Sequence record: MT446387.1
Direction: 5' to 3' (one strand)
DNA from: Escherichia phage TH09
Length of the DNA: 64,000 nt
The notes under the pieces were generated by a model. It saw only the letters and a list, made by a program, of their open reading frames with translations, did no database searches and had not been told where the DNA came from. The position numbers and the translations under genes were made by a program. This document shows, one piece after another, positions 43,288-49,886 of this stretch. The stretch's first letter is position 1, and every line of letters begins with the position of its first letter.

Positions 43288-43695
43288 ATGAAACAGTTGA
43301 TAATTAAAAGATTGAATTTATTGATATGTTGTTTATGTATAGCAATTGCATATGGTTATTATGCTATTAATGATTATATGCATTATAAAGATTATGATGT
43401 TACTGTAGTTAATACCTTTACAGGAACTCAAGGAAAGGGGTCTAGTTTATCGTTTATTGCCGTATATGAACTAAATGACGGTTATAGATTTAGCGAATAT
43501 ATTTCACCGGAGATGTATTCTTCAATAGAAAAAGGTGATAATATTACTGTAAGTTTACGTCCTTTCGACGTAAAACAGACATTGTTTGATAATATTGTTT
43601 GGTTCTTTGGAATGGTATTAGTTCAATCTGTGTGTGGTGCTTATATAGTCTGTTCCATCTTATTCTGTATATTTAGTAAAATTGAAATTGAGTGA
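43288..43695 (+). CDS. membrane protein
   Basis: 135 aa with N- and C-terminal hydrophobic helices; upstream tggTATAAT extended -10-like element. Confidence 0.55.
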   Translation: MKQLIIKRLNLLICCLCIAIAYGYYAINDYMHYKDYDVTVVNTFTGTQGKGSSLSFIAVYELNDGYRFSEYISPEMYSSIEKGDNITVSLRPFDVKQTLFDNIVWFFGMVLVQSVCGAYIVCSILFCIFSKIEIE

Positions 43696-43702
43696 GGAAA
43701 AT

Positions 43703-44590
43703 ATGTCAGTAGTAATTAATAATGTCAATGCAGTAATTAAATCTTTAGTTAATAAAAAATTGAATGAATGGACTGTACTTCGTCGTGGAGAGCCAGATAA
43801 ATTTTTTCATAGATTTAACCCAACTTTGGATTTGAATGTTATTGACAGAGATGTTCATGCAGAAATTTTAGATAAGTTTAAAGTTGATATTGGATTTGGA
43901 TTAGAAAAACATTTACAGCGAACAAACGGATCTGGAATGAGTTTATCTAATCGCATTATGAAAGCACTTAATAAAATTGGAGCATTGTCTCGTATTAACG
44001 CGAGTGAAATCCTTCGCAATTATAATAAAGGATACGACCTTTATGGTCGACTAATGCCGAAATTATCATTTGACCAAATGATTGCGGATTTGTGGGAAAA
44101 TCAACGACGATTATTAGCATTAGGCGCTCGATTAGCTAAAGGTCTAGATAAACAAATGATTTTTAAGACCAATAATACAGAAGACCTTAAATGCTTTAAA
44201 TTTAGTATTCGCGGAGATGATTATTACATCAGAGCTCGCTCTACAGATTATGTTAATATGGGGCATCATCTCTGTTTAGCTTTTGAAGTTTTAAAAGAAG
44301 TCGGAACATTAGAATATTCATCTGGTGCAAAATGTCCAATTGGTTCAAGTTGTATTTTAATTTATCGCCCGGATGAATCCAGTTCAACTAAATTGCCTAC
44401 AAAACCTGTACCAGTTCGTAGTAACGAAAAACATTCTGAACAAATTGATTATTTTAATAAGCAAATTGAAGAGCTGAATATTTCTATTCAACAGTATGAC
44501 GATGAAATTTTCAGACTATCTGGATTGAGTAGTAAAGCTAAATCTGAGCGTGAAAAATTAATTAAAATTGTTGATTTACTTAAATCTTAA
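43703..44590 (+). CDS. coiled-coil-tailed protein, paralogue 1 of 4
   Basis: ATG at 43703 with GAGGAA SD; about 295 aa; C-terminal heptad segment ...EQIDYFNKQIEELNISIQQYDDEIFRLSG... Confidence 0.6.
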   Translation: MSVVINNVNAVIKSLVNKKLNEWTVLRRGEPDKFFHRFNPTLDLNVIDRDVHAEILDKFKVDIGFGLEKHLQRTNGSGMSLSNRIMKALNKIGALSRINASEILRNYNKGYDLYGRLMPKLSFDQMIADLWENQRRLLALGARLAKGLDKQMIFKTNNTEDLKCFKFSIRGDDYYIRARSTDYVNMGHHLCLAFEVLKEVGTLEYSSGAKCPIGSSCILIYRPDESSSTKLPTKPVPVRSNEKHSEQIDYFNKQIEELNISIQQYDDEIFRLSGLSSKAKSEREKLIKIVDLLKS

Positions 44591-44598
44591 GGAACACT

Positions 44599-45624
44599 AT
44601 GAAAACTCGTTCTCAAATTGAAGATATGGTTCGTAATGCCAGCTATACTCGTGATGTTATGACATTTTTGTGCCAAAATAATTTAGACCCTGATAAAGTT
44701 AATCGTGATATTCACTTTAAGTATATGAATAGCAGTGAATGGTTACGTCATTTTGATAAAGCTGGATATATTACACAAATGACTGCTCGTGAGCAGCTCA
44801 CCGATTTCTGTAAAACTATTGATTATAAAAATCCTCTATTTGTTCAAGGCGTCGGTCAGAGTAAGGTTGATTTATCAACAGGATTTTTTAATCCAAATCA
44901 TTATCGTCTTGAATGGAGATTTATTGCTCTATTCCGTAAACAATTAAAGCAAATTTTGTCTACTGCTAGTCGATTAAAAGGCTCTGATATTAACTTAAAG
45001 AATTTGAAATTTGATGGTTATACTCTTCAGATGGAAGTAAGACCGTTAAAAGAAAATAATAGAACTGCACGAATTAGCTTTAAACCTAATACAAAAAATT
45101 CTCTTTCAATTTGTGAATGTCTTAAATCACAGTTGACAGAAGCATTTAAGTATATGGATGTTGTTGCTGCTGTTCAATCTAAGATTTTACCTCGTTTTGA
45201 ACGATTTAAATTAGACACAACAACATATGAACTTGATATGGTTGTTTCATTTAAATATGATTTTTTGAGAAAGGACGAAGTCCCGCAAGAGAAAAAGCAG
45301 GAAGTACAAGATAACTTAAATTTAAATTTATCCAATTACTTATCAAACGATCCTAAATTTTGGATGTATAGTTCAGGTAATAAAGATGCATGGAAATTTA
45401 ATAAAGTGAATTTTCTTCCTATTGAAAATCCGAGTCTTAAACCTGTTGAAAAATGGCATGCAGATGCGATTGAGAAGTCTATCAAGGCAGTAGATGATGA
45501 ACTCGTTAAAGCAACTAATGAAGTGCTAGAAGCTGAAAAGATGTTGGAAAAAGCTCAAGAAAAAGTCAAAAATCTTACGAAGCAACGTTCTAAACTGAAC
45601 AATGCACTAAATGCACTGAACTAG
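44599..45624 (+). CDS. coiled-coil-tailed protein, paralogue 2 of 4
   Basis: 341 aa; C-terminal coiled coil ...DDELVKATNEVLEAEKMLEKAQEKVKNLTKQRSKLNNALNALN. Confidence 0.6.
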   Translation: MKTRSQIEDMVRNASYTRDVMTFLCQNNLDPDKVNRDIHFKYMNSSEWLRHFDKAGYITQMTAREQLTDFCKTIDYKNPLFVQGVGQSKVDLSTGFFNPNHYRLEWRFIALFRKQLKQILSTASRLKGSDINLKNLKFDGYTLQMEVRPLKENNRTARISFKPNTKNSLSICECLKSQLTEAFKYMDVVAAVQSKILPRFERFKLDTTTYELDMVVSFKYDFLRKDEVPQEKKQEVQDNLNLNLSNYLSNDPKFWMYSSGNKDAWKFNKVNFLPIENPSLKPVEKWHADAIEKSIKAVDDELVKATNEVLEAEKMLEKAQEKVKNLTKQRSKLNNALNALN

Positions 45625-45653
45625 TTTACTTTGCCACAAGGATGTGGTATAAT
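45624..45653 (+). promoter_or_regulatory. T4-type early promoter
   Basis: GTTTAC (45624-45629, overlapping upstream stop), 18-nt spacer containing hairpin ccaca-AGGA-tgtgg, TGG-TATAAT (45648-45653). Confidence 0.6.
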
Positions 45654-45681
45654 GTTCTTACTTTCTACTGAGGAGATTAAT

Positions 45682-46683
45682 ATGACTCGTAACGAATATA
45701 TCAAATCATTCAATAGCGTTATTGATGATAAAGCTATACCGATGTTTGGTCAAAATATCGTTCTTTCTATTATCAATCAATGGCTCAATAGTGTTGATGC
45801 AAGTATTGTTTCTTCTACTAAATTTATTCATGAAATTCGTAAAATTTCTAGCCGTGTAGATAAAGATGTTATCAAGAAAACTTTTAAAGAGTCTCGTCTT
45901 CTTTCATATTTGGTTAATCGGGATATTCTTGGTAATTTTGGGAAAGAAATTAAACGAACCAAAGATGTAGTAGGATATAATTGGTTCGGTGATGTTAATT
46001 CTTATCATCTTAATAATAAAGAAGACCCTGAGAATATTTTTACTCGTCGTTGGATTAGTAATTTCAGACTTTTCAAAGGACAAATTCTAAAATCAGCTTC
46101 TAAATTATGTTATGGCGATTATCGTCAAATTCATCCTTTGGCTTCTGATATGATTATCGTAAAAGAATATGAGCTTGATGAAAATAAAGTAGCTATTTTT
46201 GTGAATTATGGATTTTTTACACCAAACGCTAACCAAAAGAATATTAATAAATTTTTCTCAATTGCTAGCACTATAACTCGTCAGTTAGAGACTGCATTAC
46301 TTTGTATGGAAACAGTAGAAAATATTCATACATATCCTTTTAAGAATATATGCGGATGGGAAGGATATAAAATTGTAATTAGTCTTCGTGAAGTGAAATG
46401 TGCTTATTCACTGACTGATAAAGAAATTTACCAACAAAAATGTGATGAAATTGTGAATACTCCTAAAGAAGAAACTACCCTTGAGGAATTAATGGAATGT
46501 CTTGACGATTCACCTGAATCGGTAGAAATTCGTCCAGAAGTTATTGCACTAGAAAAAGCTTATAAAGAAGTTCTAGAAATTTCTAATAAAGCGCAGAAAG
46601 AATATGAGCAGGCTAAAAAGATTTGGGAAGAATCTGTCAATCGCTTGGATCGTCTTGAACAAGCTTTACAGTTAATTAAGTAA
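45682..46683 (+). CDS. coiled-coil-tailed protein, paralogue 3 of 4
   Basis: ATG at 45682 with GAGGAG SD (track starts inside promoter at 45631); about 333 aa; C-terminal coiled coil ...ALEKAYKEVLEISNKAQKEYEQAKKIWEESVNRLDRLEQALQLIK. Confidence 0.6.
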   Translation: MTRNEYIKSFNSVIDDKAIPMFGQNIVLSIINQWLNSVDASIVSSTKFIHEIRKISSRVDKDVIKKTFKESRLLSYLVNRDILGNFGKEIKRTKDVVGYNWFGDVNSYHLNNKEDPENIFTRRWISNFRLFKGQILKSASKLCYGDYRQIHPLASDMIIVKEYELDENKVAIFVNYGFFTPNANQKNINKFFSIASTITRQLETALLCMETVENIHTYPFKNICGWEGYKIVISLREVKCAYSLTDKEIYQQKCDEIVNTPKEETTLEELMECLDDSPESVEIRPEVIALEKAYKEVLEISNKAQKEYEQAKKIWEESVNRLDRLEQALQLIK

Positions 46684-46735
46684 TTTAAAGCCAAGGATGG
46701 CTCGGAGCATAAATCATTAACCAAGTGAGAAGAAC

Positions 46736-47665
46736 ATGAAAACTCGTAAACATTACATTGATTATTTTGACAGTCTTATTACTAAACATCGTAATTATCA
46801 GATCGGACACAGAGCAGTAATCAATAATATTCTTCGTGATTTCCTTCAATATGTTGGCCAGGAAAATCATATCTGTAAAGATACTCAAAACGCTTATTCT
46901 CATTCGTTAGGTAATTTGCTTGAATGGTTTAAACGTTCTCGTATGTTATCTTCTACTGTAGCTCACGATAACATTAAAAACTTTATGAAGCCGAGCTTTA
47001 TTAAATCTGAGACATCTATAACCGATTTGGTTGAATTTACTATTGTTAACGATGTTAAAAAGACTCATTTGGCTGATTGGTTATCTACCATTCCTGAAAC
47101 TAAATTTGCTGATAAATTTGCTTGTCAATTCAATGACCAAGTGAATATGCTTTTTAAGCATGCTCGCAAACTGTTTACCGCGGGTGATGACCGTACAAAT
47201 ACAGTTCATGTTAAGGACTGGGTTATTGCTGATGAAGTAACACACAAGCCAGGTGGTTCATCAGTATTAATTAATATCCAGGTTCCTTATTATTACTCAC
47301 GTAATCTCGGCACCATGACAGCTAAAGAAATTAATAAGCACAACAAAACTATTCGTTCGTTGTCTTATAAACTCCGCATGATGTTAAAAATTATGGACGT
47401 AGTGGAAATGTATGACGAAACCGAAGATAATGGTTCAATGTTATACAGTTCACGCATTCTAATTAAACTGAAGAACCCTAATACATATAAGACAGTTGTA
47501 AAAGAGCCTAAAGTAGAAAAGGTTGATAATCTGAGTGAAGAACGTGAATATCTCAATGCCCGTTTGATTGAAGTTGAAGCCCAAATTGCAGAACACACCA
47601 AATTGTTAAAAGCTCTTAATGCAAAAGCAAATGGTTTACGTAATGCTATTGAGGTATTGAAATGA
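46736..47665 (+). CDS. coiled-coil-tailed protein, paralogue 4 of 4
   Basis: 309 aa; C-terminal coiled coil ...[44 protein letters not shown]. Confidence 0.6.
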   Translation: MKTRKHYIDYFDSLITKHRNYQIGHRAVINNILRDFLQYVGQENHICKDTQNAYSHSLGNLLEWFKRSRMLSSTVAHDNIKNFMKPSFIKSETSITDLVEFTIVNDVKKTHLADWLSTIPETKFADKFACQFNDQVNMLFKHARKLFTAGDDRTNTVHVKDWVIADEVTHKPGGSSVLINIQVPYYYSRNLGTMTAKEINKHNKTIRSLSYKLRMMLKIMDVVEMYDETEDNGSMLYSSRILIKLKNPNTYKTVVKEPKVEKVDNLSEEREYLNARLIEVEAQIAEHTKLLKALNAKANGLRNAIEVLK

Positions 47666-48051
47666 AAAAGCGTTTATTAGAAGACATTGCAGCTTCAAGT
47701 AATTCCAGTTTAATTAAAATTATTATGGCTGGTGAGGAAGATGATATGGAAATGCGTGGAAAGATTCACGGCTGCGACGATTTAGATTTTAAACCTCCAG
47801 CATGGGATGCTATTATGGTTATGGTTGAACGACGTGAAAGAGCTTCTAAAAACGTTCCTAATTGCCCTGAATGCGGTACTGAACAAGTTCAATTGATTAA
47901 CTGGCGTAAACCAGAGCTTGAATATAAATGCCGTCAATGTAAACATAAATTCAGTAAGCATGCTCCGGAAATGGTTAAATTGCCTGACTCTACTGAGTTC
48001 TTTAAAGAACTTGTGAGTGTTCAACCAATGCCTAATAATATTTTGGATTAA
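47662..48051 (+). CDS. zinc-ribbon protein
   Basis: 129 aa; CPECG...CRQC motif; ATGA overlap with upstream gene. Confidence 0.55.
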
Positions 48052-48297: not shown

Positions 48298-48561
48298 ATG
48301 TTTAAAGTATATGGTTATGATAGCAACATCCATAAATGTGTGTATTGTGATAATGCAAAGCGTCTTTTGACCGTGAAGAAACAGCCGTTTGAATTTATCA
48401 ACATTATGCCGGAAAAAGGTGTTTTTGATGATGAGAAAATCGCTGAGCTTCTGACTAAACTAGGTCGTGATACTCAAATCGGCTTGACAATGCCCCAGGT
48501 ATTTGCTCCTGATGGAAGTCATATTGGTGGATTTGACCAACTGCGAGAATATTTTAAATGA
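48298..48561 (+). CDS. nrdC: glutaredoxin/thioredoxin NrdC
   Basis: 87 aa, MFKVYGYDSNIHKCVYCDNAKRLL... with CVYC redox motif; same size as T4 NrdC. Confidence 0.93.
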   Translation: MFKVYGYDSNIHKCVYCDNAKRLLTVKKQPFEFINIMPEKGVFDDEKIAELLTKLGRDTQIGLTMPQVFAPDGSHIGGFDQLREYFK

Positions 48562-48773
48562 TGCTCGAAGGAACTGACTATATTCATGATTACCGCGGAA
48601 GCGCGGTATATGTAGGTGATGAAGTTGCAGTTTATTATGGGTATGGAACTTTGATGACAGCCAAGGTTATTCAAATTAAAAATAACCGTGCTAAACTTGA
48701 AGTTTATTATTCTAATGGCGAAAAGTCTATTTCTAAGTGGAAATATGGCGATTGTATGGTTAAACTGGGGTAA
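48558..48773 (+). CDS. hypothetical small protein
   Basis: 71-aa ORF, ATGA overlap with nrdC. Confidence 0.5.
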   Translation: MMLEGTDYIHDYRGSAVYVGDEVAVYYGYGTLMTAKVIQIKNNRAKLEVYYSNGEKSISKWKYGDCMVKLG

Positions 48774-48775
48774 AT

Positions 48776-48946
48776 ATGATTTACGATATTAGTGTATCAA
48801 GAACTCCGTCAATGGTTACTATTCCAGCCGAAGAACTAGATCGTCTTCAGAAAATTGAAGAACTTCTTTGGGAAATTGAATGTGACCTGCCATCGGGGCT
48901 AGAATCCTGGATTGATGATGAAGAACTTAATAAATTGCGAAATTAA
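48776..48946 (+). CDS. hypothetical small protein (below ORF-track cut-off)
   Basis: 56-codon ORF from ATG 48776 (MIYDISVSRTPSMVTIPAEELDRLQKIEELLWEIE...). Confidence 0.4.
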   Translation: MIYDISVSRTPSMVTIPAEELDRLQKIEELLWEIECDLPSGLESWIDDEELNKLRN

Positions 48947-48956
48947 TTGGTGAAAA

Positions 48957-49277
48957 ATGACTATTGAAAATAAATTAGATGTTGATGCAGTTCTGAGCGA
49001 AATCATTGAAGACCATGATGCATTTTCGGAAAACTATGATTTCGATTTTTCCGATTATCTTAAACCTGTCGAAATAGAAGACTGGGTGCAAGATGGTAAA
49101 TGTCAATATCGTCAGTGTGTTTACTTTAGTCCAAAACATAATGTACATGTGGCTGTAAATGAATCTCGGTCAGGTTCTTATCATTCTGACTGGTATTATG
49201 CAGTTCCGACTGTTGAACTAGTCGAGCCCCATGAACGTGTAGTAACTCAGACAGTACGAGAATGGATTACGCTATAA
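48957..49277 (+). CDS. hypothetical acidic protein
   Basis: 106-aa ORF. Confidence 0.55.
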   Translation: MTIENKLDVDAVLSEIIEDHDAFSENYDFDFSDYLKPVEIEDWVQDGKCQYRQCVYFSPKHNVHVAVNESRSGSYHSDWYYAVPTVELVEPHERVVTQTVREWITL

Positions 49278-49400
49278 AACCTTGGTGGGCGGCTAGATGG
49301 GAAACTGTAGAGCCAGAGCCGGAAGAACCGGTTTACACTGATGAAGAAACAGTATATAATGAACCAACGATAAATGACTTAATTGATATGGAGATGGGAC

Positions 49401-49886
49401 ATGATTACAGTAGATAAGTGGTTTAGAATTAATCGTGCTGATACAGGGCTGTGTAATTACTGGCCGGAACTTAGTGCAGGTACTGTCTTTAAAGTTCGTG
49501 AACTTGCAAAAGAATGTGAAGATGATATAGAGCCTGATACTGGAATTATTGAAATTGAACTTTCTGATGGAAAGATTATTAACATCTACGATAAGCCAAT
49601 TACGTATTGGTGCTTGTGGAATACTGAATCAGTAGAAAATGGCGAAATTGAAGAAGTTGTAGATAGAACTAATCAAGTTGTTCAGAAGCCTAAAGCTGAT
49701 TTTCAAGGTGAACGTATTTCATACGCATTAGCTAAATTAGCTGCACAAGAAAATAACGATGGCTATGAAGGAAATTTAATGCAAGCTGCCGCAGAGTACA
49801 TTGAATGGCTTGAAACTCAAATTTCTTTTTCTGACCAAAAGATTCGGCAATATAAGCGATTGAATCAAATGTTTTACAATACTTGA
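49401..49886 (+). CDS. pin: protease inhibitor Pin-like protein
   Basis: ATG at 49401 with GGAG SD gives 161 aa (T4 Pin size, memory); position between nrdC and 49 as in T4. Confidence 0.6.
   Translation: MITVDKWFRINRADTGLCNYWPELSAGTVFKVRELAKECEDDIEPDTGIIEIELSDGKIINIYDKPITYWCLWNTESVENGEIEEVVDRTNQVVQKPKADFQGERISYALAKLAAQENNDGYEGNLMQAAAEYIEWLETQISFSDQKIRQYKRLNQMFYNT

Follow-up and report, generated by a model that had tools for sequence, protein, structure and literature searches.

The nrdC.3–nrdC.6 genes of T4-type phages as a paralogous family of candidate early counter-defense proteins

The closest described relative of the genes considered here is nrdC.5 of phage T4. An evolved T4 deletion mutant fails to plate on ECOR17, or on MG1655 carrying dsr1 of ECOR17, and T4 nrdC.5 alone, expressed from a plasmid, restores its plating on Dsr1 cells; Dsr1 is a SIR2 defense counteracted by T4 NrdC.5, the evidence being genetic (Srikant, Guegler and Laub, eLife 2022; PMC9391042). 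Genes of the nrdC region are not needed on laboratory hosts, and evolved T4 lost them with no penalty on MG1655 (PMC9391042). Which other nrdC genes the T4 evo 3 deletion removed was not found in this paper or its supplements, and a literature search yielded no later work on nrdC.3, nrdC.4, or nrdC.6. Here, we analyze the corresponding block of Escherichia phage TH09 (sequence record MT446387.1), within a stretch of 64,000 nucleotides (nt) referred to below as the window. The window orthologues of nrdC.6, nrdC.5, nrdC.4, and nrdC.3 are denoted C6, C5, C4, and C3, respectively.

Two further lines of published work are relevant. The tetratricopeptide repeat (TPR) sensor of Dsr1, common to Avs7, recognizes the phage major capsid protein, and other Avs families recognize tail terminators and other virion folds (2026 preprint, PMC12803255). 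The T6 protein gp49.2 inhibits the OLD defense, and its locus can be segmentally amplified (PMC13096335).

The four window proteins are best explained, with a probability of roughly 0.6, as a paralogous family of early counter-defense proteins with differing targets, the anti-defense role being extended to C6, C4, and C3 from NrdC.5. C5 is the orthologue of the tested T4 protein (96.2% identity, syntenic, full-length DUF7235), and by this orthology it probably counters Dsr1 as well. Since T4 NrdC.5 disarms Dsr1, the block as a whole probably comprises anti-immunity genes that have diversified. An earlier note, made from the sequence of this DNA alone, had described the block as having no known function, which the nrdC.5 phenotype renders outdated (PMC9391042).

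Homology and domain plan of the four proteins

Positions 43600–47700 show 99.2% DNA identity to Escherichia phage JLBYU22 (Tequatrovirus), and at least 80% of them are covered in 462 phage records; by this similarity the window is assigned to a Tequatrovirus (T4-type) genome. All four genes lie on the plus strand. C6 (43703–44590; 295 amino acids, aa), the most divergent paralogue, matches phrog_2257 (E 3e-153) and is 99.0% identical to its T4 counterpart. C5 (44599–45624, 341 aa) matches phrog_2351 and the Pfam family DUF7235 (PF23882, E 1.2e-122), with aa 1–341 aligned to positions 1–307 of the 307-position profile at 409.7 bits, far above the gathering score of 30 bits. C4 (45682–46683, 333 aa; 98.2% identical to T4) and its closest paralogue C3 (46736–47665, 309 aa; 61.2% identical to T4) are both full-length matches to PHROG 1435, the NrdC.4/NrdC.3 group (phrog_1435, E 6e-168 and 2e-116, respectively). 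C6, C4, and C3 give no match to the PF23882 model; PF26897 is carried by all C4 homologues and PF26899 by all C6 homologues, according to the precomputed annotation of these homologues rather than of the window proteins. The genes are already known as T4 open reading frames (ORFs), one of them with a published phenotype, and are spread over three or four families in databases.

The genes are separated by 8, 57, and 52 nt. The block is flanked by nrdC.7 on the upstream side and nrdC.2 on the downstream side, the latter followed by nrdC (48298–48561), gene 49, and nrdD. The order nrdC.7-nrdC.6-.5-.4-.3-nrdC.2 matches the annotation in RB6 and VR5, which, together with comparison with a T4 derivative, is the basis for the naming. 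The four consecutive ORFs listed in the earlier note were found with the C-termini quoted there, and its placement of the block at the nrdC.3–nrdC.6 position of T4 is borne out by annotation, synteny, and identity to T4.

Pairwise BLASTP yields a single significant link, between C4 and C3 (27.5% over 160 aa, E 6e-7), in line with the little obvious pairwise identity noticed previously among the N-terminal domains. Profile–profile comparison by hhalign on family-only alignments gives a probability of 98.4% for C4–C3, a marginal 51% for C5–C4, and nothing for C6. The links become convincing only after the profiles are enriched with C5-like genes of Dhaka-, Gapriver-, and Mosigvirus and with single-copy genes of Kanagawa-, Mosuguk-, and Marfavirus. 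C4–C3 then reaches 98.5% (E 3e-15); C5 matches C4+C3 at 97.6% (E 3e-12, 256 colinear columns); the single-copy group matches C5 at 95.5%, C4 at 70–92%, and C6 at 94.7% (E 6e-8); and C6 matches the merged profile of all other subfamilies at 97.1% (E 6e-11, 233 colinear columns). Significant colinear similarity extends over the N-domains and is not a property of the tails alone in this proposed NrdC.3–.6 superfamily: N-domain-only comparison gives 98.5% for C4–C3 and 93.8% (E 2e-7) for C5–C4, while C6 with the tails removed matches the merged profile at 94.7% (E 6e-8, 112 colinear columns), compared with 0.2% for the reversed-column control and 0.7% for an unrelated neighboring family.

A hidden Markov model (HMM) of the single-copy proteins from other genera matches exactly 3 of the 90 ORFs of the window, namely C5 (6e-9), C4 (3e-6), and C6 (4e-6); no further family member was found in the 64-kb window. 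Two motifs occur in the aligned cores: LSxxxAxxxLxNF/Y at aa 95–107 of C6, 74–86 of C4, 71–83 of C3, and 58–70 of C5; and A-[SR]-[RK]-L-x2-G-x-D at aa 142–149 of C6, 123–130 of C5, and 139–146 of C4.

AlphaFold2 models cover C6 (predicted local distance difference test, pLDDT, 78.5; predicted template modeling score, pTM, 0.66) and C4 (pLDDT 83.7, pTM 0.66). The elements follow one another in the same order in both: the helical N-part leads to a beta-hairpin, a long helix, and a second beta-hairpin, after which come a disordered linker and the C-terminal helix. In C6, the helical N-part comprises aa 1–150, the beta-hairpin/helix/beta-hairpin domain aa 165–221, and the linker aa 227–242, followed by helices 241–271 and 277–294; in C4, this domain spans aa 158–235 and the C-terminal helix aa 285–332, with a three-strand insert (88–110) and two helices (246–275) as extras relative to C6. 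In Foldseek searches of BFVD, the C6 model retrieves nrdC.6 relatives and then proteins of PM2 (3e-7), IME523 (7e-7), Acj9, Acj61, and Mineola, and, weakly, P545 (E 0.049). The C4 model retrieves a C3 protein (fPS-65, 4e-8) and the same six proteins from PM2, IME523, Acj9, Acj61, Mineola, and P545 (6e-8 to 1.5e-5), as well as proteins from T4-like phages of Acinetobacter, Erwinia, Serratia, Yersinia, and Aeromonas. Apart from P545 with the C6 model, E-values for the six shared proteins lie between 1e-4 and 6e-8. Structure prediction, proposed earlier as a check of common ancestry, covers C6 and C4 and yields the same element order and six shared BFVD targets. Both members of two BFVD pairs with consecutive UniProt accessions, E5E4A1/E5E4A2 (Acinetobacter phage Acj61) and E5EYP0/E5EYP1, match the C4 model, which suggests that the family has formed tandem pairs independently in distant T4-like phages.

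C6 is the weakest link. Taken alone, its direct hhalign comparisons with C5, C4, and C3 fall short of significance (E 0.003–0.3), and its kinship rests on intermediates and the merged profile; its N-domain-only match to the Kanagawavirus group spans only 34 columns (76%), and chimeras in the block (described below) show that modules are swappable. C6 might accordingly be no true paralogue but an unrelated protein that obtained a similar helical tail by convergence or recombination, leaving three related genes. Such an origin is already disfavored, and we consider it very improbable, given the match of the C6 N-domain to the merged profile with its clean controls, the same secondary-structure order in the C6 and C4 models, their six shared Foldseek targets, and the match of C6 to the HMM of single-copy relatives. 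Profile–profile comparison joins all four proteins, C6 through the merged profile; together with the single-copy HMMs, the matching secondary-structure order, and the shared Foldseek targets, this makes the common ancestry well supported, and all four very probably descend from one gene.

The C-terminal tails were analyzed by a heptad a/d scoring scan, each protein being compared with the maximum of 100 whole-protein shuffles. Regions exceeding 100 of 100 shuffles are aa 239–273 of C6, 287–341 of C5, 286–333 of C4, and 259–309 of C3. With the shared register and, for C6 and C4, the AlphaFold2 helices, this delineates plus-strand heptad helices at 44417–44590 (NrdC.6, aa 239–295, kinked at GLSS), 45457–45624 (NrdC.5, aa 287–341), 46534–46683 (NrdC.4, aa 285–333), and 47510–47665 (NrdC.3, aa 259–309). 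Anchored at the C-terminus, one register is common to five subfamilies, with hydrophobic residues making up 71–86% of a positions, 85–98% of d positions, and 0–56% of other positions. The C4 tail is modeled as a single 48-residue helix, and the C6 tail as a helix broken at G-L-S-S, both preceded by a low-confidence linker; a/d periodicity thus extends over at least four heptads in predicted helix. The description as heptad coiled-coil tails is right for all four proteins, all of which exceed their shuffles in one shared register; the length given earlier, 50–60 aa each, has to be changed to 35–55 aa, and the C6 helix is kinked. The tails also share a similar terminal motif, (Q/N)R-x-K-L-x2-A-[LIM]-x2-L-[KN]. 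Identity between the four window paralogues is just 6–9 of 45 positions, so what relates the tails is their register and terminal motif rather than their sequence as a whole.

The common register and terminal motif, along with the co-directional, tightly spaced genes co-transcribed as early genes, would also fit four subunits of one hetero-oligomeric complex, assembled via compatible C-terminal helices and acting jointly on a single target. This is a doubtful alternative: on Dsr1 cells, plasmid-borne NrdC.5 was enough by itself to rescue the T4 deletion mutant, related phages work with one, two, or three members, and the low identity of the tails fits homo- over hetero-association.

Copy number, alleles, and mosaics

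The number of family members is one in Kanagawa-, Mosuguk-, and Marfavirus, two or three in Mosigvirus, three in Dhaka- and Gaprivervirus, and four in Tequatrovirus. The single member, 309–338 aa long, lies directly upstream of nrdC.2 in Kanagawavirus (IME523, PEi20, Kosakonia 305), Mosugukvirus PM2, and Marfavirus (P545, Marfa). Dhaka- and Gaprivervirus have C6, a C5-like gene (22–27% identical to C5), and C4; Mosigvirus HY126 has C6-like, C5-like, and C3 genes, and Mosigvirus FL18 has two members only. A search of 1.84 billion representative proteins with the C4+C3 profile returned 10 matches, including the bridging Marfavirus protein P0234, all from phages, with no cellular relatives among these representatives; by these searches the family appears to be Tevenvirinae-specific, tiny, and phage-restricted. 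One to four copies across genera in one genomic slot is what an old tandem duplication predicts, and comparison of the genomes supports such a duplication just upstream of nrdC.2, followed by divergence. The old tandem amplification proposed in the earlier note agrees with this series, and the comparison of T-even genomes that it called for reveals variation in both copy number and sequence.

Gene-wide Nei–Gojobori ratios of non-synonymous to synonymous substitution rates (dN/dS), calculated for the window versus 10 Tequatrovirus loci, are 0.01–0.17 for C6, 0.11–0.23 for C5, 0.16–0.31 for C4, and 0.05–0.37 for C3, compared with 0.00–0.12 for the neighbors nrdC.8, nrdC.1, and nrdC; the block evolves faster. 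These values indicate relaxed constraint without gene-wide positive selection. The suggested diversification holds as relaxed or mosaic evolution and does not extend to positive selection, all gene-wide values (0.01–0.37) being below 1.

The alleles of C3 are deeply separated (dS about 1), that of the window being 61% identical to NrdC.3 of T4 and T6. Divergence is concentrated in a central cassette, aa 69–262 (46940–47521, plus strand), which is 46% identical to T6/T4 and 80% to Mosigvirus FL18; in the flanks, identity to T6 is 94% for aa 1–68 and 83% for the tail, and identity of the N-terminus to FL18 is 68%. This implies that NrdC.3 is a mosaic whose central cassette has probably been exchanged between genera.

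Two rearranged proteins were also observed. P0056, a 299-aa chimera on three contigs including a 167-kb genome, is a C5/C3 fusion with nrdC.4 deleted: its aa 1–129 correspond to NrdC.5 145–273, and the remainder to NrdC.3 from about aa 139. P0122 of Shigella phage Sf25 is a variant of NrdC.6, 378 aa long, in which an internal segment, aa 176–258 (the beta/alpha/beta domain), is duplicated in tandem.

The dominance of purifying selection and the conservation of one copy across many Tevenvirinae genera could also point to a host-takeover or housekeeping role early in infection, e.g., modulation of a host pathway, with the relief of Dsr1 by NrdC.5, an action known genetically, as an indirect side effect. 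We regard such a role as unlikely, if somewhat less so than the joint complex discussed above: the phage can do without the genes on laboratory hosts, and their loss from evolved T4 carried no cost on MG1655; close relatives differ widely in copy number and alleles, as is typical of accessory host-range genes; and neighboring genes are anti-defense factors.

Proposed mode of action

For the preferred interpretation, a paralogous counter-defense family, the following scheme may be suggested. One Tevenvirinae-specific early accessory gene would have been duplicated in tandem just upstream of nrdC.2, giving proteins with a shared plan: a helical N-part with two colinear motifs, a beta-hairpin/helix/beta-hairpin domain, a flexible linker, and an amphipathic heptad helix of 35–55 residues. 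The C-terminal helix would hold the proteins as coiled-coil oligomers, while binding, and hence blocking, of different host immune sensors or effectors would fall to the diverged N-terminal and central parts. Blocking would act early in infection, ahead of the late virion proteins that trigger the sensors. Oligomerization, direct binding, and anti-defense roles of C6, C4, and C3 are what we infer in this scheme. The context speaks for an anti-defense function: the anti-OLD gene gp49.2 is a neighbor, the family is phage-only, it evolves faster than its neighbors (dN/dS 0.1–0.37, compared with 0.02–0.1), and it is mosaic.

Several observations weigh against this interpretation. The phenotype on record is that of NrdC.5 only, and either direct binding or an indirect effect may account for it. 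Pfam, PDB, and PADLOC-type annotation offers no lead to a mechanism: searches of Pfam at E up to 10 and sequence and profile searches of PDB gave no informative match for the window proteins, the PDB matches to designed helical repeat proteins being rejected as helical low-complexity noise. Oligomerization of the tails is a prediction from the heptad pattern only; the direct comparisons of C6 with the other three are non-significant, as given above; in BFVD, neither the C6 nor the C4 model matched the other's subfamily by name; and gene-wide dN/dS is below 0.4 throughout the 10 Tequatrovirus loci, with no arms-race signature at this resolution.

The blocking could take a more specific form, in which the proteins are early decoys for bacterial pattern-recognition sensors, the central alpha/beta domain imitating a conserved, tail-terminator-like virion fold and being displayed on a coiled-coil oligomer. 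Such oligomers would occupy TPR-type sensors of Dsr1/Avs-class receptors ahead of the genuine late structural proteins, and every paralogue, like every swappable central cassette such as that of NrdC.3, would be matched to a receptor of its own. The signal of a tail-terminator-like fold, the fold of lambda gpU, GTA, SPP1-type, and other such proteins, is weak; tail terminator (gpU-like) families gave no Pfam match at E up to 10, and the genes sit in the early nrdC region, not in the tail gene module. We treat the decoy role as a speculative possibility.

Even in T4, the phage studied best, roughly half of the genes lack an assigned role. With one family containing an anti-Dsr1 member, three "hypothetical" genes become concrete counter-defense candidates. 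The new elements are the single family with a defined domain plan, the one-to-four copy series, the NrdC.3 cassette mosaic, and the weak tail-terminator-like fold signal. The domain plan, with variable N-terminal and central parts and a constant, putatively oligomerizing tail, can guide experiments, and, in the copy series with the swappable NrdC.3 cassette, the expansion and retuning of a phage anti-immunity gene can be studied as it occurs in nature. Practical relevance lies in the host range of therapeutic T4-like phages.

Genomic setting and comparison with known systems

A T4 early-promoter-like site, GTTTACTTTGCCACAAGGATGTGGTATAAT (45624–45653, plus strand), occupies the 57-nt gap between C5 and C4. 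It fits the T4 early promoter consensus, scoring 10/12 in a consensus scan, with an extended −10 TG. Its form, GTTTAC-N17-TGGTATAAT, is a good match, and it is the sole match to GTTTAC-N15–17-TGnTAnAAT in the 11 kb between 40 and 51 kb. The site is kept in nine Tequatrovirus loci and absent from other genera. The early promoter previously ascribed to the third copy is thus upheld in its consensus match and conservation, and is best called putative. The spacer of the site is filled by a 7-pair inverted repeat, TGCCACA-AGGA-TGTGGTA (core CCACA-AGGA-TGTGG; 45632–45649), conserved with the site in the nine loci; it may serve as an operator, form a structure at the RNA 5′ end, or be coincidental.

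Just downstream of the block, the alleles of nrdC.2 (47662–48051) are likewise very deeply diverged between Tequatroviruses that are close elsewhere (dS reaching about 1.2, dN/dS 0.17–0.32), and the length of its product varies, being 129 aa in the window and 122 aa in T6. Small ORFs at 48558–49417, between nrdC and pin, take the 49.3–49.1 positions. In Mosigvirus FL18, gene 49 and an nrdG-like gene are separated by two homing-endonuclease genes (L003, 8898–10389), with no nrdD annotated in that stretch, which looks like a local replacement. The single-copy genera carry, a few genes upstream, a conserved protein of 256–261 aa (L007, 4247–5017; L008, 4269–5042; L009, 4458–5243; L010, 3916–4686); considered as a family member, it proved unrelated to NrdC.3–.6 by hhalign.

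Among known systems, T4 NrdC.5 (PMC9391042) is the closest, C5 being its orthologue at the same position and C6, C4, and C3 its diverged paralogues; the paralogy of nrdC.3–.6, the domain plan, and the coiled-coil tail are not described in that paper. DSAD1 is similarly a phage protein that neutralizes a SIR2 NADase defense (DSR2); it binds to the sensor region in competition with the virion protein that activates the defense, which makes DSAD1-like action a plausible model, by analogy, for NrdC.5 on Dsr1. DSAD1 comes from Bacillus phages and lies outside any tandem paralogue array, and it is likened here by function only.

The dmd-tifA-adfA "anti-TA (toxin–antitoxin) island" and gp49.2 (anti-OLD) resemble the block as early, non-essential, fast-evolving accessory genes in hyperplastic regions, gp49.2 lying a few genes downstream of nrdC.3–.6 in the same direction of transcription; however, they encode small unrelated proteins instead of four paralogues built on one multi-domain plan. 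Tandem host-range gene families and gene accordions, e.g., the amplification of poxvirus K3L or of T4 tifA, share with the block a tandem change of copy number at an accessory locus under host-defense pressure, followed by divergence, although the nrdC.3–.6 duplications are ancient (paralogues at most about 25% identical, shared across genera) and not recent identical repeats. Against this background, nrdC.3–.6 are candidate phage anti-defense accessory genes expanded by duplication, rather than a new kind of system.

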